Shown in pieces: positions 6,475 to 53,681 of a stretch of DNA of 64,000 nucleotides; the stretch's first letter is position 1; every line of letters starts with the position of its first letter. The DNA comes from Acidimicrobiia bacterium (GTDB taxonomy: Bacteria; Actinomycetota; Acidimicrobiia; IMCC26256; BP-133). Where the stretch lies: NCBI GenBank assembly GCA_044867425.1, contig JBIOUX010000220.1, forward strand, positions 4,942 through 68,941, read 5' to 3'. The position numbers and the translations under genes are program-made. The notes beneath the pieces are model-generated. The model had not been told where the DNA came from. It did no database searches and saw only the letters and a list, made by a program, of their open reading frames with translations.

Positions 6475-6681
6475 GTGGCTACTGGAACCGTGAAGTGGTT
6501 CAACGCCGACAAGGGTTATGGGTTCATCACCCAGGACGACGGCGGCTCCGATGTGTTCGTGCACTTCAGCGCCATCCAGGACACCGGTTACCGGAGTCTT
6601 TCGGAGAACGAGAAGGTCGAGTTCGACGTCACTCAGGGCCCGAAGGGCGCCCAGGCGGCGAACGTCCGGCGCCTCGGCTGA
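6475..6681 (+). CDS. cspA: cold-shock protein (CspA family)
   Basis: GTG start after a strong SD. Sequence [34 protein letters not shown] carries RNP1/RNP2-like motifs. 68 aa. Confidence 0.95.
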
Positions 6682-9045: not shown

Positions 9046-10257
9046 ATGAGGCCGAGGCCTTCCTTCCCGGTCCGAGTGCGCCGGCTGCTGACCGCCCTGG
9101 TGCTGGTGACGGCGGGCTGTGCGCAGGGGAGCGGTCCGGTGACGGCCGTCCGGGCCGGCAACGAGCTTGAGGCTCCGCAGCTGCCCGGGGTTCCCGGCGA
9201 GGAATTGCCGGACCTCCCGGGGGCGCCCGGGATCGAAGGGCCGGAGGTGCCGGGCGCCATCTCATCGGAGGGCGGGGGTGGGCCTTCGGCCGACGGGACG
9301 GGCTGCGGGCCGATGATCCTCTACGCCCTGGCCGCGCCCGGGGGGTCGCCGTCGGGCGTCGCCGCCGGAGACGCCGGTTCGGTGTGGTTCACCGACCCGG
9401 CGACCTCGTCCATCGGGCACCTCGAAGTGGACGGGACGGTCCGCCGCTACGCCCTCCTGCCGGGGCGCCGGCCCGGGCCGATTGCCAGGGCGGCCAACGG
9501 CGACCTGTGGTTCACGGACCAGTCCGGCCCCCGGATCGGCCGGATGACGCCCGCCGGGGTGGTGAGCGAATTCCCTCTGCCTACGGTGGAGGGCAATCCC
9601 ATGGGTATCGGCGGTGTCAACGCGGCCGCGTCAATCATCGCCGGCGGCGACGAGGCCATGTGGTTCACCGAGGCGGCCGCCGACAAGGTGGGCCGCATCA
9701 CTCCGGAGGGAGTCGTCTCCGAGTTTCCGCTGCCCCGCCGGGAGCGGATGCACGCCTACCCGACCGGCATCGCCGCCGGTCCCGACGGCGCCGTGTGGTT
9801 CAGCGAGCCGCTGTTCGGCATCATCGCCCGCATCGACGTGGGCACCCACGCCATCAAGGAGTTCCCCATCCCCCGCGACGGTCGGGGGGGTCTGGTGGGA
9901 ACCAACAGCCTCGCCGGCGGGCCGGCGGGAGCGCTGTGGTACGAGGACCCCGGCGCCTCGGCCATCGGCCGCTTGGGCACCGACGGGACCGTGCGCTCGT
10001 TCCGCCTCCCGAATCCCCTCTGGCAACCGCTGGCGGTCAGCGCCGGCCCCGACGGTCAGGTGTGGTTCCTGGAGACGTTCGACGGCACGGTGATCCGCAT
10101 GACCACCGACGGCCGCTTCAGCGGGTGGGCCACCGGCGAGGCGGCGGCCGGGATCGGCGCCGGCAGCGCCACCCAGATGGTCGCCGGCAGCGACGGCGCC
10201 ATGTGGTTCGCCGCGCCGGCGGGCAACCGGATCGGCCGCATCCCCTGCGGAGTCTGA
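9046..10257 (+). CDS. lipoprotein with Vgb (streptogramin lyase)-like beta-propeller repeats
   Basis: Lipobox LVLVTAGC after MRPRPSFPVRVRRLL. Repeated blades follow the pattern G(P)DG(A)(L/V)WFTE...IGRITP.G.V.EFPLP. Confidence 0.7.
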   Translation: MRPRPSFPVRVRRLLTALVLVTAGCAQGSGPVTAVRAGNELEAPQLPGVPGEELPDLPGAPGIEGPEVPGAISSEGGGGPSADGTGCGPMILYALAAPGGSPSGVAAGDAGSVWFTDPATSSIGHLEVDGTVRRYALLPGRRPGPIARAANGDLWFTDQSGPRIGRMTPAGVVSEFPLPTVEGNPMGIGGVNAAASIIAGGDEAMWFTEAAADKVGRITPEGVVSEFPLPRRERMHAYPTGIAAGPDGAVWFSEPLFGIIARIDVGTHAIKEFPIPRDGRGGLVGTNSLAGGPAGALWYEDPGASAIGRLGTDGTVRSFRLPNPLWQPLAVSAGPDGQVWFLETFDGTVIRMTTDGRFSGWATGEAAAGIGAGSATQMVAGSDGAMWFAAPAGNRIGRIPCGV

Positions 10258-23611: not shown

Positions 23612-23817
23612 CCGCCGCCTCCGGCGTTTCCGTCGCCGGGCCGCGTCCCTTCACCCGCTCCAAACGCCGGCGCCGGCCACTTTCGGTCGCCGGGTGGCAA
23701 AGGGGACTTCTTCCGGCAAGCGCTTCCGGGCTAGTTACGGTCGCCCTGGGGCCCTGCCGACACCCTCCTTAAGTCCGCAAGTCCGCGTGAAGTCCCGCGG
23801 CGCGATTGGAGGGCACT

Positions 23818-25200
23818 GTGGCAAGCGTTATGACGATCCCCCCTCGGGCCAAGGACCCCTTCACCAAGGTTGTGGCCGCCGGAGCAGCTGTGGTGTTCCT
23901 GGCCGGCGTGGCCAGCGCCTTCGCCATGTCCGGACCCTCCGGCTCGGGCGGCTTCGACGTGCAGGCCGCCGCTCCCGGCGCCGCCGGCACGTCGGGATCG
24001 GCGACCGTCCAGACACCGGTCGGCTCGGCCTCGGCCCACAAGAAGTCGTCCCCGACGACGCTGGGCGGCTCGTTCTCGTCGCCGGTCGGCGGGGCGGCGG
24101 CGACCGCCACGGCGCCGGCCGCACCCGGCGGTCTTCTTCCGGCCCCGGGCGTGACCGGGGGGCTGCGCACCCCGGCGCCGGCCGCCAGCAGCCTGCTGCC
24201 GGGCGCCAAGCCGACCACCGCTCCCAAGCCCGGCTCCAGCACCCCCAACGCGGTCGTGGAAGCCGACGGCACCCTCACCCTGCCGGGCCTCGACGTCCCC
24301 ATCCTCGGCGACCTCCTGGGCGACCTCGGGGTCACCGAGGTGCCCGTGGTCTCGGACCTGCTCAACGGCCTCTCGCCCGAGGTGCTCGCCCTCGTCAACC
24401 AGCTGCTGGGCTCGGTTCCGGCCGAGGACCTGCTTGCGCTCCAGAACGTCCTCGCCACCCTGCCGCCCGCCGCCGTCCCCGACCTGACCGCCCTCCTCGG
24501 CGGCATCTCTCCGGAGAGCCTCCCGGTGGTCGGCCAGCTCCTCAATCTCCTGCCGGTCGCCAACGCGCCGCTGGCCGGTTCCGTGCTCTCCGGGCTGCCG
24601 GCGGGCGGCGTCCCCGCCCTGGGCGGGCTGCTCACCTCGCTTCCGGTGGGGCAGGTCGATGCGGTGGGCACGGTGCTCAACACGCTCTCGGCGGCCGACC
24701 TGACGACGCTCGGCAACCTCCTCGCCGCCTCCGACGGGACGAAGTCGCTGACCAGCCTGGTCGGGGGCAGCTCGGGTGGGCTCGTCGGTGGGCTGCTCGG
24801 GGGGCTGCTCGGTGGGTCGAGCCCCCTGTCGTCCTCGGGCCTGTCGACCGTCAACTCGCTCCTCGGTGGCCTGCCCACCTCCAGCCTGCCCCTGGTGGGA
24901 ACGCTCATCAACTCACTGTCCACGGCCCAGGCCCGCGATGTCGGCCAGCTGCTGACGGGCCTGCCCGACGCCGGGCTGCCCGTCCTCGGCCAGGTGCTGG
25001 GGGCGGTGCCGGCCAGTGGCCTGCCGCTGGTGGGCCAGCTGATCGGCTCGGCCACCGCCGACGGCGGCCTCCCGTTGGTCGGCTCGCTCCTCACCGGCCT
25101 GCCGACGGGGAGCCTGCCGGTGGTCGGCACCCTGCTCAGCACCAGCACGGTCGAGAGCCTCCCGCTGGTCGGCGACCTCCTGGGCATCCTGGGCCTGTAG
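23818..25200 (+). CDS. membrane-anchored Leu/Gly/Pro/Ser-rich repeat protein
   Basis: GGAGGG lies before GTG 23818. One N-terminal TM (VVAAGAAVVFLAGVASAFAM). About 300 aa of degenerate 10-16-aa units follow, such as LPVVGQLL, LPLVGTLI, LPLVGQLI, LPLVGSLL, LPVVGTLL and LPLVGDLL. Confidence 0.65.
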   Translation: MASVMTIPPRAKDPFTKVVAAGAAVVFLAGVASAFAMSGPSGSGGFDVQAAAPGAAGTSGSATVQTPVGSASAHKKSSPTTLGGSFSSPVGGAAATATAPAAPGGLLPAPGVTGGLRTPAPAASSLLPGAKPTTAPKPGSSTPNAVVEADGTLTLPGLDVPILGDLLGDLGVTEVPVVSDLLNGLSPEVLALVNQLLGSVPAEDLLALQNVLATLPPAAVPDLTALLGGISPESLPVVGQLLNLLPVANAPLAGSVLSGLPAGGVPALGGLLTSLPVGQVDAVGTVLNTLSAADLTTLGNLLAASDGTKSLTSLVGGSSGGLVGGLLGGLLGGSSPLSSSGLSTVNSLLGGLPTSSLPLVGTLINSLSTAQARDVGQLLTGLPDAGLPVLGQVLGAVPASGLPLVGQLIGSATADGGLPLVGSLLTGLPTGSLPVVGTLLSTSTVESLPLVGDLLGILGL

Positions 25201-40482: not shown

Positions 40483-40694
40483 ACACCCTTTTTCGGCGTC
40501 CTTGGATGCCGGTTGAGCGCTCGGTGCCATTTCTTCAAATTTCCGGCCACGTTATTGGTTGAACCTTCCAGAGAATCGGTCGGAATTGTGACCCGGGGCT
40601 GGCAGGGCCTCCCAGTTGTTCGGCTGAGCGCCTGGCCGGTTGGGGAACCGCTGTGCTATGCAGCACGCGGCAGGCGGACGGCGAGGGAGCACGA

Positions 40695-41813
40695 GTGACT
40701 GCGCTCGCGGGGATCGTCACCAACTCGGCGTCCGGGCGAGACATCCGCCGCCTGGTGACGCGGGCCTCGGTGTTCCCCAACGCCGAGAAGTCGGCCATGG
40801 TCCAGCGCACCCTCGGCGCCTTGGGCGCGGTGGGGGTGGAACGGGTGCTGGTCATGACCGACCTGGGTGGTATCGCCGCCGGCGTCCTCCGGGCCCGCCA
40901 GCGGGGCCACCAGGACACCATCTCCTGGCCCGAGGTCGAGTTCTTGGACCTGCCCCTCACCGAGACCGCCTCTGACACCACCGCCGCCGTCACCGCCATG
41001 GTCGACCGAGGGGTGGGCGCCATCGTCGTGCTGGGGGGCGACGGCACCAACCGGGTGGTGGCCGGGGCCTGCGGGGACGTGCCCATCGTCTCGCTGTCCA
41101 CCGGCACCAACAACGTCTTCCCCGAGCTGCGGGAGGCGACGGTGGCCGGGCTGGCCGCCGGCCTCGTCGCCACCGGGGCGGTGCCGGCCGAGGCGGTGTG
41201 CCGGCGCAACAAGGTGCTCGTCGTTGACGATCTCGCCGCCGCCACCCATCCCGCGTTAACGAAACCCGGCTCCCAGCCGGGTTCGGTTAACGCGCGACGG
41301 GGTGGGGAGGCGCCGGCTCGCCGGCGGGAGCTGGCGCTGGTCGACGTGTGCGCCACCACCCACGCCTTCCTGGCCACCCGGGCAGTGTGGGAGGCCGACA
41401 GCCTCCGGGCCCTGTTCGTCGCCTTCGCCGAGCCCGACGCCATCGGCCTGTCCGCCATCGCCGGACTGCTGCGCCCCGTGGGTCGCGACGAACCCTTCGG
41501 CCTCGCCCTCCAGCTGGCCCCGGCGGCCGAGGCCCGGCTCCGGGTGCGCGCCCCCATCGGCCCCGGCCTGGTGGTCGACGTCGGGGTGGAGGACGCCACT
41601 CCGATGATGCCGGGGGAACGCTGGCCGCTTCCCGCCGGCACCGGGGTCATCGCCCTCGACGGCGAGCGCGAGATCGAGCCCAACGGAGCCCGGCCGACCG
41701 TCCGGCTGGAGCTCGACGGTCCTTACACCATCGATGTCCGCCGCACGCTGGCCCGAGCGGCCGAGGCCGGCCTGCTCACCGACGGCGTCGTTCGCATCCC
41801 GCCCGTGACCTGA
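40695..41813 (+). CDS. acoX: ATP-NAD kinase family protein (AcoX-like)
   Basis: GTG start after GAGGGAG. Contains VVLGGDGTNRVV and LSTGTNNVFP. It lies directly upstream of acoA/B/C-like genes and carries an internal palindromic insert. Confidence 0.7.
   Translation: MTALAGIVTNSASGRDIRRLVTRASVFPNAEKSAMVQRTLGALGAVGVERVLVMTDLGGIAAGVLRARQRGHQDTISWPEVEFLDLPLTETASDTTAAVTAMVDRGVGAIVVLGGDGTNRVVAGACGDVPIVSLSTGTNNVFPELREATVAGLAAGLVATGAVPAEAVCRRNKVLVVDDLAAATHPALTKPGSQPGSVNARRGGEAPARRRELALVDVCATTHAFLATRAVWEADSLRALFVAFAEPDAIGLSAIAGLLRPVGRDEPFGLALQLAPAAEARLRVRAPIGPGLVVDVGVEDATPMMPGERWPLPAGTGVIALDGEREIEPNGARPTVRLELDGPYTIDVRRTLARAAEAGLLTDGVVRIPPVT
41252..41294. repeat. GTTAAC-centred palindromic mini-repeat, copy 1 (inside acoX)
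   Basis: CGCGTTAACGAAACCCGGC-TCCCA-GCCGGGTTCGGTTAACGCG, with 19-nt arms and 2 mismatches. Its right arm (41275-41297) is an exact 23-nt reverse-complement match to 52197-52219. Confidence 0.75.
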
Positions 41814-41830: not shown

Positions 41831-42805
41831 TTGGCTGCTCAACTGACCAAGGATCGGCTGCTCGAGGCCTATCGGACCATGAGGACGATCCGGGAGTTCG
41901 AGGACCGGATCCACACCGAGTTCGCCACCGGCACGATCCCCGGCTTCGTCCACCTCTACGCCGGCGAGGAGGCGTCGGCCACCGGGGTGTGCATGCACCT
42001 GGGACCGGACGACCGCATCGGCAGCACGCATCGGGGCCACGGCCACTGCATCGCCAAGGGCGTCGACGTGATGGCGATGATGGCCGAGATCTACGGGAAG
42101 GTCACGGGCGCCTGCCGGGGCAAGGGCGGGTCCATGCACATCGCCGACCTCAGCCTCGGGATGATGGGCGCCAACGGCATCGTCGGCGGCGGCCCGCCGC
42201 TCATCTGCGGGGCGGCGCTGGCGGCCAAGCACCGGGGCCAGGGCGGCGTCGGGGTGGCCTTCTTCGGCGACGGCGCCTCCAACCAGGGCACCACGCTGGA
42301 GGCCCTCAACCTGGCCACGGTGTGGGACCTCCCCGCCGTGTTCGTGGCCGAGAACAACGGCTACGCCGAGTCCACCTCGCCCAAGTGGTCGGTGGCGGGC
42401 GAGAGCATCGGCGACCGGGCGGCGGCCTTCGGGATGCCGGGGGCAACGGTGGACGGCTTCGACTTCTTCGCCGTCTACGAGGCGGCCGGCGAGGCCATCG
42501 AACGGGCCCGCCAGGGCGGCGGCCCGTCCCTCATCGAGGTCAAGTTCATGCGCTACTACGGCCACTTCGAAGGCGACGGCCAGACGTACCGGGGCGAGAA
42601 CGAGGTGGCCCGCCTCAAGGAGACCAGGGACGTGCTCAAGCAGTTCCGCGAGCGGGTGACGTCCCAGATGGGCGTCAGCGGCGACGAGCTCGACCTCGTC
42701 GACAAGGAGGTCGGCCAGCTCATCGACCAGGCCGTCGAAGCCGCCCAGGCCGCTCCCCTACCCGGGGCCGACGACCTGCTGACCGACGTCTACGTCTCCT
42801 ACTAG
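41831..42805 (+). CDS. acoA: TPP-dependent acetoin/pyruvate-type dehydrogenase E1 alpha subunit
   Basis: TTG start after AAGGAGGAGGA. Contains GFVHLYAGEEA, THRGHGHCIAKG, GSMH, GDGASNQG and ENNGYA. Confidence 0.85.
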   Translation: MAAQLTKDRLLEAYRTMRTIREFEDRIHTEFATGTIPGFVHLYAGEEASATGVCMHLGPDDRIGSTHRGHGHCIAKGVDVMAMMAEIYGKVTGACRGKGGSMHIADLSLGMMGANGIVGGGPPLICGAALAAKHRGQGGVGVAFFGDGASNQGTTLEALNLATVWDLPAVFVAENNGYAESTSPKWSVAGESIGDRAAAFGMPGATVDGFDFFAVYEAAGEAIERARQGGGPSLIEVKFMRYYGHFEGDGQTYRGENEVARLKETRDVLKQFRERVTSQMGVSGDELDLVDKEVGQLIDQAVEAAQAAPLPGADDLLTDVYVSY

Positions 42806-42824: not shown

Positions 42825-43838
42825 ATGGCACGCACGATCACCTACCGGCAGGCCATCAACGAGGCGCTCCGCCAGGAGATGGAGCGCGACGACACCGTCA
42901 TCGTCATGGGCGAGGACAACGCCGGCGGCCAGGGCACCGAGGGCGAGCGCGACGCCTGGGGCGGCGTGCTGGGCGTCACCAAGGGCCTCTACCCCACCTT
43001 TGGGGACCGGGTGATGGACACCCCCATCACCGAGTCGGCCTTCATCGGCGCCGCCATCGGGGCGGCCGCCTGCGGCATGCGGCCGGTGGCCGAGCTCATG
43101 TTCATCGACTTCATGGGCGTCTGCTTCGACCAGATCTTCAACCAGGCGGCCAAGTTCCGGTACATGTTCGGGGGCAAGGCCGTCACCCCCGTCGTCATCC
43201 GCACCATGTTCGGGGCGGGACTCCGGGCCGCAGCCCAGCACAGTCAGGGCCTCTACCCCATCTTCACCCACATCCCCGGCCTGAAGGTGGTCATCCCGTC
43301 GACGCCTTACGAGGCCAAGGGGCTGCTGATCCAGTCGATCCGCGACGACGACCCGGTCATCTTCTGCGAGCACAAGATGCTCTATGACATGACCGGCGAC
43401 GTCCCCGAGGAGAGCTACACGATCCCCTTTGGGGAGGCCAACGTGGTGCGTGACGGCGACCACGCCACCCTGGTGGCCGTGGGCCGGATGGTCCACACCG
43501 CCACCGAGGCGGCCGAGGAGCTGGCCGGCTCGGGCGTGGAGTGCGACGTCATCGACCTGCGCACCTCCAGCCCGCTCGATGCCGAGACCATCCTCGAGTC
43601 GGTCGAGCGCACCGGCCGGCTGGTGGTGGTCGACGAGGCCAGCCCCCGCTGCGGCCTGGCCGCCGACATCTCCGCCCTGGTGGCCCAGGAGGCGTTCGGG
43701 TCGCTGCGGGCCCCCATCCAGATGGTGACCCCGCCCCACACGCCGGTGCCCTTCTCCAGCGCCCTGGAGGACCTCTACATCCCCGATGCCCAGAAGGTGG
43801 TGGGCGCCGTCAAGACCGTCATGGACTACGAGAAATGA
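42825..43838 (+). CDS. acoB: E1 beta subunit
   Basis: Contains TYRQAINEALRQEMERDDTVIVMGED, DTPITESAFIGAAIGAA and PGLKVVIPSTPYEAKGLL. Confidence 0.9.
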   Translation: MARTITYRQAINEALRQEMERDDTVIVMGEDNAGGQGTEGERDAWGGVLGVTKGLYPTFGDRVMDTPITESAFIGAAIGAAACGMRPVAELMFIDFMGVCFDQIFNQAAKFRYMFGGKAVTPVVIRTMFGAGLRAAAQHSQGLYPIFTHIPGLKVVIPSTPYEAKGLLIQSIRDDDPVIFCEHKMLYDMTGDVPEESYTIPFGEANVVRDGDHATLVAVGRMVHTATEAAEELAGSGVECDVIDLRTSSPLDAETILESVERTGRLVVVDEASPRCGLAADISALVAQEAFGSLRAPIQMVTPPHTPVPFSSALEDLYIPDAQKVVGAVKTVMDYEK

Positions 43839-44959
43839 GCCAGATCCACAAGCTGACCATGCCCAAGTGGGGTCTCTCCATGACCGAGGGCAAGGTCGAG
43901 GCGTGGCTGGTGGCCGAGGGGGACCCGATCGAGCCCGGCATGGAGGTCGCCGACGTCGACACCGAGAAGATCTCGGGCTCGGTCGAGGTCCCGCCGGGCG
44001 TGACCGGGATCCTGCGCCGGCAGGTGGCGGCGACGGGCGACGTGCTGCCCGTCGGCGCCCTCCTCGCCGTCGTGGCCGGGGCGGAGGTGGCGGACGAGGA
44101 GATCGAGGCGCTGATCGCCGAGTTCCAGGCCACCTTCGTCCCCGAGGAGGCGGCCGAGGAGGGGCCGGCCCGCCAGGACGTCGAGGTCGCCGGCACCCGC
44201 CTGCGCTACGTCCAGGTCGGCGACGGCGACCAGGCCGTCGTCCTGCTCCACGGCTTCGGCGGCGACAAGGACACCTGGCTGTTCAACCTCGACGCCCTGG
44301 CCGAGGGCCGCACCGTCTACGCCCTCGACCTGCCCGGGCACGGCGAGTCGGGCAAGGAGGTGGCCGACGGCTCCGTCGCCGGCCTGGCCGCCACCGTGAG
44401 CGGCGCCCTCGACGCCCTCGGGATCGACCGCGTCGACCTCGTCGGCCACTCGATGGGCGCGGCGGTGGCCATGGCGGTGGCGGCCGCCGCCCCGGGTCGG
44501 GTCCGGTCCCTGGCCCTGCTGGCTCCCGCCGGGCTGGGCCAGGAGATCAACACCGGCTACCTGCGCGGCTTCGTGGCCGCCCAGAGTCGCCGGGAGCTGA
44601 AGCCCCACGTGGAGCAGCTCTTCGCCGACCCGGCGCTCGTCACCCGGGAGCTGCTCGAGAACGTGCTCAAGTTCAAGCGGCTGGACGGGGCGCAGGCGGC
44701 GCTGTCGGCCGTGCTCGACGGGTTCCTCGCCGGCGAGGGCCAGGCCACCGTCCTGGCCGAGCCGGTGGCCGCCCTCGGGATCCCGACCCTGGTCGTGGCC
44801 GGCGCCGAAGACCGGGTCATCCCCCCCGGGCACGCCGGCGCCCTGGGCGGGAAGGCGGCGGTGCACGTCCTGGAAGGCAAGGGCCACATGATCCACATGG
44901 AGGCGGCCGGCGAGGTCAACCGCCTGCTCGCTGACCACCTCGGTGCCGCATCCCGGTAA
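43835..44959 (+). CDS. acoC: AcoC-type E2-like protein (lipoyl domain fused to alpha/beta hydrolase fold)
   Basis: ATGA overlap with acoB. Lipoyl domain MPKWGLSMTEGKV...VDTEKISGSVE, then VLLHGFGGD and GHSMGAAVA. Confidence 0.8.
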   Translation: MSQIHKLTMPKWGLSMTEGKVEAWLVAEGDPIEPGMEVADVDTEKISGSVEVPPGVTGILRRQVAATGDVLPVGALLAVVAGAEVADEEIEALIAEFQATFVPEEAAEEGPARQDVEVAGTRLRYVQVGDGDQAVVLLHGFGGDKDTWLFNLDALAEGRTVYALDLPGHGESGKEVADGSVAGLAATVSGALDALGIDRVDLVGHSMGAAVAMAVAAAAPGRVRSLALLAPAGLGQEINTGYLRGFVAAQSRRELKPHVEQLFADPALVTRELLENVLKFKRLDGAQAALSAVLDGFLAGEGQATVLAEPVAALGIPTLVVAGAEDRVIPPGHAGALGGKAAVHVLEGKGHMIHMEAAGEVNRLLADHLGAASR

Positions 44960-50549: not shown

Positions 50550-50614
50550 GGCCCGCGAGTATGGCCTCTCTGCCGTGCCGGGCCGGACGGCGTGGCCAAC
50601 TTACGCTGGGCGGG

Positions 50615-52207
50615 GTGAGCACTGACGCGGTCGTCATCGGCGCCGGCCACAACGGGCTGGTGGCCGCCAATCTGCTGGCCGACGCCGGCTGGGACGTCAC
50701 CGTGCTCGAAGCCCAGGCCGAGCCCGGCGGGGCCGTGCGCAGCGGCGAGCTCACCCTGCCCGGCTACGTCCATGACCTGTTCAGCGCCTTCTACCCGCTG
50801 GCCGCCGCCTCCCCCGTGCTGCGGGCGCTGGATCTCGAGGCCCACGGCCTGCGCTGGTGCCGGGCGCCGGCCGCCCTGGCCCACCCTCAACCGGACGGTG
50901 CCTGCGCCGTGCTCAGCACCGATCTCGACGAGACGGCGGCGTCGCTGGACACCTTCCATCCCGGGGACGGGGACCGGTGGCGGGAGCTCTACGCGTGGTG
51001 GACGGGGACCGAGGGCGGCTTCGTCGACAGCCTGCTGTCGCCCTTCCCACCGGTGCGGGCGGCGGCCCGCCTGGCCGCCCGCCTGGGCCCGTCCGGTGGG
51101 CTGCGCCTCACCCGCCTGGCGCTCGGGCCCGTCCGGCGCCTGGCCGACCAGCGGTTCCAAGGCCCGGGCGGTGGCCTGCTCCTCACCGGATGCGCGCTGC
51201 ATGCCGACATCCCGCCCGACGCGGCCGGCAGCGGCCTGATGGGATGGATGCTCACCTGCCTCGGCCAGGAACACGGCTTCCCCACCCCGCAGGGGGGAGC
51301 AGCCCGGCTGATCGACGCCCTCGCGCGCCGGCTCGAATCGAGGGGCGGCCGGCTGCAGGTGGCCACGCCGGTGGAGCGGATCCTGCTCCAGGGCGGAGAG
51401 GCGGTCGGGGTGCGGACGGCCGGCGGCCGGGAGATCCGAGCCCGCCAGGCGGTCGTGGCCGACGTGGGCGCGCCGGCGCTCTACCTCGAGCTCATCGGGC
51501 GGGAGCATCTCCCCTCCCCGCTGCTGCGGGCCCTGGGCCGGTTCCGGTACGACCACGCCACGGTCAAGGTGGACTGGGCCCTCGACGGCCCCATCCCCTG
51601 GGCGGCCAAGGAGGCGCGCCGGGCGGGCACGGTCCACACCGGCGACAACGTGGATCACCTGAGCCAGGCCGCCACCGAGCTGGCCGAAGGGCGGATCCCG
51701 GCTCGACCCCCGCTCATCATCGGCCAGATGACGACCACCGATCCGAGCCGGTCGCCGCCGGGAACGGAAACGGCCTGGGCCTACACCCACGTGCCCCAGG
51801 CGGTGCGCGCCGATGCCGGCGGCAACCTCACCGGCGCCTGGAACGCGAGCGAGACCGGGGACTTCGTGGCCCGCATGGAAGCCGAGATCGAGCGGCTGGC
51901 CCCGGGATTCGCGGGGCTCGTGCGGGCCCGGCACGTGCTCGTCCCGGCGATGTTCGAGGCGGCCGACGCCAACCTGGTGGGCGGGGCCATCAACGGCGGC
52001 ACGGCCCGGCTCCGCCAGCAGCTCGTGCTCCGCCCCGTCCCCGGACTCGGCCGGGCCGAGACCCCCTTCCCCCGGCTGTTCCTCGCCTCCGCTTCGGCCC
52101 ATCCCGGCGGCGGAGTCCACGGCGCCTGCGGCGCCAACGCCGCCCGGGCCGCCCTGGCCCGGGGCGCCCGCCTCCGGTCCGGGGCCGCCCGCCTCCTCGC
52201 GCGTTAA
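50615..52207 (+). CDS. phytoene desaturase (CrtI)-like NAD(P)/FAD-dependent oxidoreductase
   Basis: GTG start giving VSTDAVVIGAGHNGLVAANLLADAGWDVTVLEA. The C-terminus has AHPGGGVHGACG. Confidence 0.8.
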   Translation: MSTDAVVIGAGHNGLVAANLLADAGWDVTVLEAQAEPGGAVRSGELTLPGYVHDLFSAFYPLAAASPVLRALDLEAHGLRWCRAPAALAHPQPDGACAVLSTDLDETAASLDTFHPGDGDRWRELYAWWTGTEGGFVDSLLSPFPPVRAAARLAARLGPSGGLRLTRLALGPVRRLADQRFQGPGGGLLLTGCALHADIPPDAAGSGLMGWMLTCLGQEHGFPTPQGGAARLIDALARRLESRGGRLQVATPVERILLQGGEAVGVRTAGGREIRARQAVVADVGAPALYLELIGREHLPSPLLRALGRFRYDHATVKVDWALDGPIPWAAKEARRAGTVHTGDNVDHLSQAATELAEGRIPARPPLIIGQMTTTDPSRSPPGTETAWAYTHVPQAVRADAGGNLTGAWNASETGDFVARMEAEIERLAPGFAGLVRARHVLVPAMFEAADANLVGGAINGGTARLRQQLVLRPVPGLGRAETPFPRLFLASASAHPGGGVHGACGANAARAALARGARLRSGAARLLAR

Positions 52208-52244
52208 CCGAACCCGGCTCACAGGCGGTTTTCGCTAACCCGCG
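52197..52244. repeat. GTTAAC-centred palindromic mini-repeat, copy 2 (at a gene 3' end)
   Basis: TCGCGCGTTAACCGAACCCGGCT is an exact 23-nt match to the reverse complement of 41275-41297. It is followed by a degenerate second arm, GCGGTTTTCGCTAACCCGCG. The TAA inside GTTAAC is the stop codon of the upstream gene. Confidence 0.7.
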
Positions 52245-52275
52245 ATGCCCCGGGGGGTGGCGAGCGGCGCGGTGC

Positions 52276-53019
52276 TCACTCGGCGTCGTGAAAGACGAGG
52301 CCCAGGGTGTGCCGGCGCCCGGAACGGACGATGCTGACAGAGTGGCGCATCGGGCTGCTGGCCCACCCCCGCCGGGTGCGGACCGGCCGGTCCCGGGTGG
52401 TGAACACCAGGGCCTGGCCCTGGCCGATGAGGGTGGACGTGGCCCGGGACTGGGCCCGGGGCCGCTGCTCGACGACCACGAACTCGCCCCCGGTGTAATC
52501 GACGCCGGGCTCGTCGAGGCCGATCACCACCTGGAGCGGAAACACCAGGTCGCCGTAGAGGTCACGGTGCAGGGCGTTCCAGTCGCCCGGCCCGTAGCGC
52601 AGGATCAGCGGCGTGGGCCGCTTCTGCCCGGCGGCGTGGCACCGCTCCAGCCAGCCCTGGAAGTCGTCGGGCCAGGGCGCCGGCTGGTCCCGCCGCTGCG
52701 CCCACTCCCGGGCGACGGGGAGCAGGTGGGGCCAGAAGGCGGCCCGCAGCTCGGCCACCTCGTCGGGCAGGGGACGGTCGAAATACCGGTACTGGCCCTC
52801 GCCGAAGCGGTAGCGGGCCATGTCGATGGTGGCCCGGAACCGCTCGTCGTCGTCGTAGAGGCCGGCCAGGGTGCGGCACTCGGCCACGCTGAGCACCGGG
52901 GCGGTGAGGGCGACGCCCACGTCGTCGAGGTCGCCGGCCGCCCGGCCCCAGTCCAGGGCGTCGACCCGTTCGGTGATCGACCGGGTGGTCCGCTCGAGGG
53001 CGGTGGCGGTGGCGTTCAT
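52276..53019 (-). CDS. 2OG-Fe(II) oxygenase superfamily protein
   Basis: ORF trimmed to MNATATALER. HxD motif NALHRDLYG, distal His MRHSVS and RRHTLGLVFHD. ATGA overlap with ogt. Confidence 0.7.
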   Translation of the reverse strand: MNATATALERTTRSITERVDALDWGRAAGDLDDVGVALTAPVLSVAECRTLAGLYDDDERFRATIDMARYRFGEGQYRYFDRPLPDEVAELRAAFWPHLLPVAREWAQRRDQPAPWPDDFQGWLERCHAAGQKRPTPLILRYGPGDWNALHRDLYGDLVFPLQVVIGLDEPGVDYTGGEFVVVEQRPRAQSRATSTLIGQGQALVFTTRDRPVRTRRGWASSPMRHSVSIVRSGRRHTLGLVFHDAE

Positions 53020-53681
53020 GATGCGGCCTCCATCTCCAGGAGGGCCGCCTTCATGTCCGATCCTCCGCCGTACTGGCCGATGGTGCCGTCGCTGCGCACC
53101 ACCCGGTGGCAGGGCACCACCACCGGGACCGGGTTGCGGGCGCAGGCACTGCCGGCGGCCCGGACGGCGGCGGGGTTTCCCGCCGCTCGGGCGACGGCGG
53201 CGTAGCTCTCGGTCCGGCCGTAGGGGATCTGCTGGAGATGGGAGATGACCGCCAGGCGGAACCCGCGGACCAGCTGCAGGTCGACGGGCAGCTCGAAGCG
53301 GCGGCGCCGGCCGGCGAAGTACTCGTCCAGCTGGCGGGCGGCGGCGTCGGTGCGCCGGGGCGAACGCAGGATGCGGGGGCTGATGGCACCGGCCAGGCGG
53401 GTGAGGACGGCGGCGTGGTCCTCGCACTCGAAGGCCACCCGCACCAGGCCCTTCGGGCTGGCGGCCAGCAGCAGCGAGCCGAAGGGGCTGTCCACCGTCC
53501 GGTAGGACACGTCCAGCAGTCCCTCCCGCTCGGCCTGCGCGGCCAGGCGGGCCCGCAGGTCCACGTCGGTGCTGCCGGCGGCCGGGAAGGAGGCGGCCAG
53601 GCGGCGGATGATGTCGTCCCCGAAGTCATCGGGGTTCGGGGTGTCCCCGAAGTCATCGGCGGTACGGGCGTCGGGGCTCAT
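53016..53681 (-). CDS. ogt: methylated-DNA--protein-cysteine methyltransferase
   Basis: Active site VVPCHRVV, plus IPYGRTESYAAVA. Confidence 0.9.
   Translation of the reverse strand: MSPDARTADDFGDTPNPDDFGDDIIRRLAASFPAAGSTDVDLRARLAAQAEREGLLDVSYRTVDSPFGSLLLAASPKGLVRVAFECEDHAAVLTRLAGAISPRILRSPRRTDAAARQLDEYFAGRRRRFELPVDLQLVRGFRLAVISHLQQIPYGRTESYAAVARAAGNPAAVRAAGSACARNPVPVVVPCHRVVRSDGTIGQYGGGSDMKAALLEMEAAS

Follow-up and report, generated by a model that had tools for sequence, protein, structure and literature searches.

What a hairpin of the kind usually found between genes is doing inside an intact, translated coding sequence is the question raised by the acoX gene of an Acidimicrobiia bacterium, here analysed in 64,000 nt of contig JBIOUX010000220.1 (GenBank assembly GCA_044867425.1, positions 4,942 to 68,941 of the forward strand; hereafter the window). 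An earlier note, made from the sequence alone, had taken the GTTAAC-containing palindrome within acoX for an element like a repetitive extragenic palindrome (REP) or a miniature inverted-repeat transposable element (MITE). We reach a similar view: with a probability of about 0.75, the hairpin belongs to a lineage-specific REP/MITE-type family of short palindromic repeats of uncultured Acidimicrobiia, a copy of which is tolerated in frame in acoX. This interpretation is supported by further copies, by orthologues that lack the segment and by the intact state of the gene.

The palindrome and its host gene

Positions 41252-41294 read CGCGTTAACGAAACCCGGC-TCCCA-GCCGGGTTCGGTTAACGCG, two 19-nt arms on either side of a 5-nt loop, with GTTAAC in each arm. 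The sequence and coordinates given earlier for this hairpin were exact, but 17 of the 19 arm positions are paired rather than all of them (the mid-arm mismatch is GA opposite CG), and the whole palindrome is larger than had been noted. It spans 41234-41312, with arms at 41234-41271 and 41275-41312 (38 nt, 79% complementary); no local inverted repeat elsewhere in the window is longer. A 67-nt stretch of this copy, copy A, folded at -46.3 kcal/mol as RNA (z -6.8) and at -27.8 kcal/mol as DNA (z -5.9).

The exact 23-nt reverse-complement match between 41275-41297 and 52197-52219 was confirmed, and the similarity between copy A and this second copy, copy B, extends beyond it to 60 nt at 82% identity (41247-41306 versus 52188-52247). 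Such a match had been called far beyond chance. For a degenerate arm pattern, 0.07 occurrences would be expected in the window; three were found, a count that 100 shuffles never reached. All GTTAAC sites in the 64 kb (n = 3) lie inside copy A or copy B. When the window was scanned with a covariance model with filters off, copies A and B were the only matches, the next best scoring 16 bits. A second, independent assembly of the same organism (L036, GCA_044866285.1) was 99.9% identical over 16.8 kb and its acoX was identical; copy A is therefore no assembly artefact.

The hairpin sits within the open reading frame (ORF) 40653..41813(+), and the peptide THPALTKPGSQPGSVNARRGGEAPARRRE quoted for it is correct. 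This ORF matched PF01513 (NAD_kinase) and PF00781 in Pfam, a structure search with its predicted fold matched NAD, diacylglycerol (DAG) and sphingosine kinases, and 6,230 homologues were retrieved; an NCBIfam equivalog and a solved homologue were both sought for it, the latter by sequence, and neither was found. Because a PF01513 ORF stands directly upstream of genes for E1-alpha, E1-beta and a lipoyl/alpha-beta-hydrolase protein, the label AcoX-like is reasonable; the arrangement is acoXABC. On the opposite strand, a long ORF (window 40535-41683(-)) runs across acoX, and in it the element reads RALTEPGWEPGFVNAG; such spurious antisense ORFs could get annotated as genes with the "same motif".

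Filled and empty alleles of acoX

Close AcoX homologues, 70-88% identical and derived from Acidimicrobiia metagenome-assembled genomes (MAGs) and metagenomes, are mostly ~342 aa long. The proteins without the insert read ..NKxLVVDD-GG-RRELALVDVC.., and in the window protein 30 residues replace this GG, as the orthologue alignment proposed in the earlier note made plain. In nucleotide sequence, the empty alleles of L033, L034 and L035 read GTGGTGGACGACGGCGGGCGCCGGGAG, and filled alleles are longer by 54-84 nt at exactly that point. More distant AcoX outgroups are equal in length to the empty alleles, and since the two share this length, the extra segment of acoX is an insertion. An insert at this position was also found in four further homologues, P0002 (L003), P0006 (L004), P0008 (L001) and P0009 (L002), and the DNA of all four inserts forms the same 19+5+19 palindrome as the window.

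In an AlphaFold model of the window protein (mean predicted local distance difference test score, pLDDT, 81), the insert lies between strands 174-180 and 210-214, and its residues 184-207 had pLDDT <50. If the insert, residues 11-30 and the C-terminal tail are set aside, the mean pLDDT of most 10-residue blocks was 85-97. On this model the insert probably forms a disordered surface loop in a beta-hairpin turn of the C-terminal domain. The segment had been noted as looking unlike the rest of the NAD-kinase fold, with the frame preserved. The gene is not destroyed: the ORF is intact, and the fold outside the insert is predicted with confidence. The insert also contains a rare TTA codon, at 41256; TTA accounts for 5 of 16,473 codons in those ORFs of the window that have high GC content at third codon positions, a set that includes the antisense ORF of acoX itself.

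The alternative that the segment had expanded within the gene, left open at the outset beside insertion, fits one allele only. In L002 (10583-10645; identical in L028) the G-rich tail that follows the element in AcoX has grown into a (GGGCGGG)n-like tract encoding GGVGGPGGAGGTGG, as if a local repeat had expanded in addition to the insertion. At the other end of the protein, orthologues P0006, P0008, P0009, P0011 and P0014 share a conserved C-terminal ..HEEE(D/N)SWLLN extension that overlaps the start of acoA, and the window AcoX and others terminate before it.

Copies of the element in Acidimicrobiia

Fourteen distinct copies with the same 19+5+19 architecture were recovered, by fuzzy and model-based searches, from ~200 kb of DNA of this Acidimicrobiia lineage, a collection biased by the search patterns; five of them represent the AcoX site in five genomes, one is the decayed copy of the window, and eight occupy intergenic or 3'-end positions in relatives. 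The expectation that more copies would exist was thereby borne out. The family has a core of 43 nt and a full element of ~65-80 nt, with the consensus ..CCACCC(C)RTCK-CGCGTTARCSRAACCCRSC-TCCCA-GSYGGGTTYSGYTAACGCG-MGAYGGGGTGG... Strong copies scored 36-86 bits with the covariance model, the diverged copies of L037 and L038 scoring 43 and 36 bits. In an identity matrix the copies did not cluster by genome, and concerted evolution within genomes, which the 23/23 match of copies A and B had suggested, was accordingly not supported.

Collections of genomes and metagenomes were scanned with exact arm patterns only. The pattern GGGTTCGGYTAACGCGCGA gave 6 matches in genome contigs, of which one had the second arm (L010, an Acidimicrobiia MAG); this collection evidently lacks the source species. 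With CGCGCGTTARCCGAACCC, 22 matches were obtained in metagenomes, 4 of them real (L018, L019, L028, L032) and the others single-arm chance matches. Among viral contigs there were 17 single-arm chance matches, none fitting the covariance model, and nothing meaningful matched in the plasmid collection. Single-arm matches in unrelated taxa and viral contigs never showed the second arm and so served as a negative control. A 42-aa concatenated peptide profile, used to look for other intragenic copies, returned 18 candidates, none with E <= 10, and is uninformative at that database size. No Rfam family reached its gathering threshold anywhere in the window; the local matches were weak, to microRNA precursor models at 13-24 bits (thresholds 64-90) and to the Pseudomonas small RNA P9 at 18 bits (threshold 43).

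A different palindrome, GGAGGTGGTCGCGATC..GATCGCGACCACCTT, lies between the convergent acoC and a pyruvate-dehydrogenase E1 gene in L002 (14239-14307, the same as L028 5367-5437). It scored 17 bits with the model and may be a distant relative of the family or simply a terminator.

Constraint on the palindrome

In the window the arms carry GTTAAC..GTTAAC and CCCGGC/GCCGGG, and in L002 to L004 they carry GTTAGC..GCTAAC and CCCACC/GGTGGG. Between the window and either L002A or L004A, three stem pairs are compensated and one change is uncompensated; the chance of at least three compensated pairs under seven random stem substitutions is ~8.5e-5. The residue changes in the insert are coupled in the same way (T/A with V/A, G/T with P/V) and follow directly from the palindrome, and the residues encoded by the loop are the most variable of the insert (SQ, AH, CH, SD). 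The compensated pairs, together with these coupled changes, indicate that the nucleic-acid palindrome is conserved, not the peptide. In an alignment of eleven copies, the share of paired stem cells was 80%, compared with 19-39% when partners were slid by one to three columns; covariation beyond column conservation was modest, as 65 of 500 shuffles reached the observed score.

Six-frame translation showed that in most copies only one frame per strand (frame 0) is free of stops. This open frame would read TTA as Leu and AAC as Asn, and the other two frames would meet TAA or TAG in the arms; a single stop-free frame per strand accounts for both in-frame survival in acoX and the donation of stops elsewhere. 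G-U pair counts were symmetric between the strands, so that there is no evidence for one RNA strand as the functional form. A strand-specific RNA function was rejected on the same counts, the orientation of the element relative to genes being ambiguous because it is nearly a perfect palindrome.

Placement outside acoX

The eight copies that are not internal to AcoX all occupy spacers between convergent or unidirectional genes; divergent spacers contain none of them, and 6/8 overlap a stop codon or lie within ~35 nt of one (Table 1). In two cases, the oxidoreductase at copy B and aroB of L018, the element supplies the end of the ORF as GCG CGT TAA. The C-terminus of the oxidoreductase, ..RRLAGA* in its orthologues, accordingly reads ..RLLAR* in the window.

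Table 1. Coordinates of the element, its host operon and its other copies; positions are those of the window unless another sequence is named.
Feature	Position	Strand	Remarks
AcoX-like host gene	40695..41813	+	ATP-NAD kinase / DAG kinase fold; 372 aa, identical to P0001; PF01513, PF00781
Insert	41232..41321	+	30 codons (LAAATHPALTKPGSQPGSVNARRGGEAPAR) in place of two (GG); net insertion 84 nt
Full element, copy A	41234..41312	.	Outer arms CCACCCATC / GACGGGGTGG lengthen the stem; covariance model 85.7 bits, E 2e-23
Core hairpin, copy A	41252..41294	+	19-nt arms, loop TCCCA, one GTTAAC per arm
acoA (E1 alpha)	41831-42805	+	E1_dh; directly downstream of acoX
acoB (E1 beta)	42825-43838	+	Transket_pyr; downstream of acoX
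acoC	43835-44959	+	Biotin_lipoyl + alpha/beta hydrolase; downstream of acoX
FAD-dependent oxidoreductase (phytoene-desaturase-like)	50561..52207	+	3' end overlaps copy B
TAA stop of the oxidoreductase	52205..52207	+	From GTTAAC of copy B: GCG CGT TAA = A R stop
Copy B	52182..52260 (core 52200-52242)	.	Decayed, inverted; 13/19 stem pairs, 64.8 bits, fold z -1.5; fills the spacer between convergent genes
Oxygenase-NA ORF	52276..53427	-	PF09859; convergent, 34 nt between its stop and the copy B core
Copy L001B	L001 14896-14974		Between convergent genes
Copy in L004	L004 2461-2539		acoX-acoA junction; gives P0006 a second THLAFTEPTSQEGSVHAQR peptide
Copy in L010	L010 1593-1671		Acidimicrobiia MAG; ~10 nt past a stop codon
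Copy in L018	L018 7746-7826		3-dehydroquinate synthase gene (aroB) ends GCG CGT TAA inside the element
Copy in L019	L019, duplicated as L032		Fills an 86-nt spacer between convergent CBS-domain and low-molecular-weight (LMW) phosphatase genes
Copy in L037	L037 6590-6667		Between co-directional genes
Copy in L038	L038 7416-7493		Oxidoreductase stop gives way to a read-through tail ..PPIRVSDTRLPAGF.., element in another frame

The true start of the Oxygenase-NA ORF that converges on copy B is probably further into the ORF, judging by orthologues of 243-247 aa. In relatives (L037 11735-12413, L039 3565-3840), a gene for an Ada Zn-binding domain stands between the oxidoreductase and Oxygenase-NA genes. 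The window has no Ada gene there, only the 68 nt of 52208-52275 with copy B, and L038 has a 248-nt spacer without a called gene; the element at this site may mark a local deletion or rearrangement.

Further repeats were seen beside several copies. In L010 a separate long palindrome, GGGCTTTGCGGGGAAAGTGCACGT..ACGTGCACTTTCCCCGCAAGC (1503-1574), lies just upstream of an ABC-F ATPase gene and may be a leader or terminator structure. In L037 an operator-like palindrome, TTGACAACTATTCTTGTCAA (6570-6590), adjoins the copy, upstream of a gene for an HTH_20 (ArsR-like) regulator. The aroB of L018 (7801-9006(-)) also has an in-frame tandem repeat, GMSGTDPDP, present four times between its two Pfam domains. 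The window itself holds direct repeats of other kinds. Families D1 and D8 (GTGTGGTTCACCGA.. every 135-276 nt, at 9362-10242) correspond to the propeller blades of a protein of the virginiamycin-B-lyase family and are a repeat at the protein level, not a DNA element. Family D2, five 52-nt copies at 24356-25181, lies in ORF 23806..25197, which has no Pfam match and may encode an uncharacterised repeat protein.

History and mobility

In a neighbour-joining tree of AcoX with the insert masked, the insert-bearing proteins were not monophyletic. P0001 grouped with the insert-less P0003, P0004, P0005 and P0010 (bootstrap 88) and P0008 with P0009 (bootstrap 86), and P0002 and P0006 fell among insert-less sequences. 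The flanking codons of L003, which is filled, were 92% identical to those of L033 and L035, both empty. From this patchy placement and the identity of the flanks of L003, L033 and L035, at least three events of gain, loss or allele exchange are needed. The 3' site of the oxidoreductase is likewise patchy: the window and L038 have the element there, L037 and L039 do not. At the two filled sites the junction and the best-matching orientation differ; common descent of copy B and the L038 copy was therefore not established.

Several observations weigh against the reading of the hairpin as a member of a mobile REP/MITE-type family. The filled acoX alleles share a 5' junction (GAN GRT CTC..), with extra ACCCATC outer-arm codons in the window and L001, and the divergence of the AcoX elements (72-91% identity) tracks that of their flanks (83-92%); the shared junction and the flank-like divergence would favour one old, vertically inherited insertion, with later loss or recombination, over repeated transposition. 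Against a single old insertion, in turn, the empty alleles have the exact ancestral length, so that excision would have needed precise restoration. The word mobile is drawn from the patchy distribution alone. As to target-site duplications, a check proposed in the earlier note, alignments of filled with empty sites gave no unambiguous direct repeat, the junctions being G-rich and old, and a possible GAAGG duplication was seen in L004 only, in low-complexity G-rich sequence. Neither a transposase nor a REP-associated tyrosine transposase (RAYT, of the IS200/IS605-like Y1 kind) was found among the larger ORFs of the window in a partial Pfam survey of the 64 kb; in ~197 kb of lineage DNA, neither a longer parent element with the same ends nor isolated bracketing arms were seen; and no autonomous insertion sequence (IS) with matching terminal inverted repeats was found in lineage DNA, plasmids or viral contigs. 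Copy number also looks low (about one per 25-50 kb, in a sample subject to ascertainment bias), and a role at the RNA level is without support, as the G-U pairs show no strand asymmetry and the element has no T-tract.

A working model and its alternatives

As we picture it, the usual home of the family would be the 3' ends of genes and the spacers between convergent or co-directional genes, where a copy, once transcribed, would fold into a stable hairpin and, by its position, might serve as a stabiliser or weak terminator. The acoX copy would be an unusual intragenic case that landed, or was retained, in a beta-hairpin turn, where it would survive through the stop-free frame and encode a surface loop of ~20-30 residues, probably disordered. 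The other frames would run into TAA or TAG, which would explain why other copies terminate neighbouring ORFs. The arms stay complementary among genomes by paired substitutions, and what constraint or correction would act on is the nucleic-acid palindrome rather than the peptide. It is possible that the TTA codon and the very stable stem affect translation of acoX locally.

In a rival account, the hairpin is a selected cis-regulatory RNA or DNA structure that tunes acoX/acoABC, for example through ribosome pausing at the -46 kcal/mol stem and rare TTA, through internal attenuation or by blocking RNase, and has in the repeat family merely its evolutionary source. The stem has indeed been kept by compensatory changes among genomes whose flanks are 83-92% identical, copy A is a much better hairpin than the intergenic copy B (z -6.8 versus -1.5), and it brings one of the very few TTA codons of the window. 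We nevertheless consider this account unlikely, because many equally close orthologues without the hairpin keep the same operon, the element also stands beside unrelated genes (aroB, a CBS-domain gene, an arsC-like gene, ABC-F, the oxidoreductase) and neither strand is favoured for G-U pairs; moreover, templated correction of quasi-palindromes is able to keep palindromes perfect without selection. Less credible still is an adaptive AcoX surface loop with a function of its own, for example as an interaction or regulatory site. Although the frame is kept in five genomes and the motif AL(A/T)KP(T/G)..G(S/L)(A/V)(N/H)A(R/K) recurs, the recurring residues are exactly those that the palindrome dictates and their paired changes mirror base-pair compensation, while the residues encoded by the loop vary freely in a segment predicted to be disordered. 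The same peptide, moreover, turns up as junk from read-through in the C-terminal tails of P0006 and P0123, in the latter from another frame, and close orthologues manage without it; we hold this account to be very improbable. An ordinary coding sequence with a chance palindrome, or an assembly artefact, has practically nothing in its favour beyond the prior expectation that GC-rich genomes are full of short inverted repeats, and was ruled out by the pattern count (0.07 expected, 3 observed), by the fold (z -6.8), by the absence of the segment from most orthologues and by its presence in two assemblies of this organism and four other genomes.

The REP/MITE-type repeat tolerated in frame can be taken a step further, to a proposal that we regard as doubtful: an undescribed Acidimicrobiia palindromic family, mobile now or until recently, that favours G-rich GGCGGGCG-like targets, has repeatedly hit the same acoX codon stretch and the 3' end of the oxidoreductase gene, and has its hairpin actively maintained, by selection or templated correction, while being translated. 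If this were true, a route of protein evolution like that of the Rickettsia palindromic elements (RPEs) would operate in a free-living, high-GC actinobacterial lineage, with machinery that is neither RAYT nor a known IS, and protein loops and C-termini would be remodelled by it in different lineages.

Whatever its mobility, the locus is informative in itself. Five orthologous filled acoX sites and several empty ones let constraint on the nucleic acid be told from constraint on the protein, and the element illustrates a rule of survival, one stop-free frame per strand through the repeat. Such elements also produce annotation artefacts (altered C-termini, read-through tails, spurious antisense ORFs with the same peptide), by which protein alignments can be misled.

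Comparison with known systems

Several known structures were compared with the element and set aside. An intrinsic terminator or 3' stabiliser would likewise be a GC-rich stem-loop directly after stop codons, but here the hairpin is followed by CGACGGGGTGGG without a T/U tract, a terminator scan did not call it, and one copy lies inside the first gene of an operon, which is incompatible with efficient termination. An integron attC site was rejected because the order of the motifs is reversed (GTTARC left, GYTAAC right), the heptamers depart from the consensus of R'' (RYYYAAC, 5' end) and R' (GTTRRRY, 3' end), and the two copies in 64 kb form no array. A Tn3-type inverted repeat and a CRISPR repeat were rejected by inspection.

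REPs are placed between convergent ORFs at no more than 20 bp from 3' ends, supply stops from their termini and in some cases are intragenic, encoding 20-30 aa (PMC3733652); intragenic REPs can occupy about the same site in orthologous genes, as in recB of Xanthomonas (Di Nocera et al., 2013, PMC3733652). The present family resembles the GTAG and CGTC superfamilies of REPs in its short hairpins by 3' ends, its stop-supplying termini and its occasional in-frame copies of ~20-30 residues. It differs in having stems of 19-22 bp, compared with 8-9 bp in CGTC families, and in lacking an unpaired GTAG or CGTC end tag, the flanking (C/G)(G/A)TC(G/T) lying itself within the palindrome; neither HH or TT dimers nor a RAYT came to light for the element, and its copy number appears low. 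Neither REP type fits in the strict sense. The GTAG type has an unpaired GTAG at one end of an imperfect palindrome of 20-40 bp, and none of the 14 copies ends in GTAG or CTAC, the ends being ..RTCK-CGCG and CGCG-MGAY.., and the CGTC type (8-9 bp stem starting with A-T, 4-5 nt loop, CCA tail) is excluded since CGTC occurs in few copies, and there paired, with no CCA tail; the loop, at 5 nt, is of comparable size, the stem is not. The host phylum, Actinomycetota (Acidimicrobiia), is absent from the text of the REP survey (PMC3733652). In the broad sense of a dispersed, multi-copy hairpin that is mostly extragenic and placed at 3' ends, the family is REP-like.

Bacterial MITEs can give rise to in-frame fusions or new ORF ends and show presence/absence polymorphism (PMC10969869). 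The element shares with MITEs such as Correia, ERIC and Nezha these two effects as well as two inverted arms and a non-autonomous nature; it is shorter than most of them, and neither a target-site duplication nor a parent IS with matching ends was found for it. RPEs insert in frame into unrelated housekeeping genes, and their peptides are tolerated at sites compatible with the fold (reviewed in PMC10969869). The likeness to them, a palindromic repeat in frame in a housekeeping gene with a tolerated peptide, is behavioural only: RPE-1-type elements are ~100-150 bp long, encode a family-specific peptide and have dozens of intragenic copies in AT-rich, reduced genomes, whereas the present element measures 45-80 bp, was found at one intragenic site in a ~72% GC genome and has no sequence similarity to them. 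Membership in RPE-1 to RPE-10 was rejected on the Acidimicrobiia host and the lack of any Rfam or known-repeat match. The element reveals no new mechanism; it is a new, lineage-specific case of an already known class, that of small palindromic repeats occasionally inserted in frame, and it extends the in-frame "decoration" of housekeeping proteins, best known so far from Rickettsia RPEs and some proteobacterial REPs, to free-living, ~72%-GC Acidimicrobiia known only from metagenomes.

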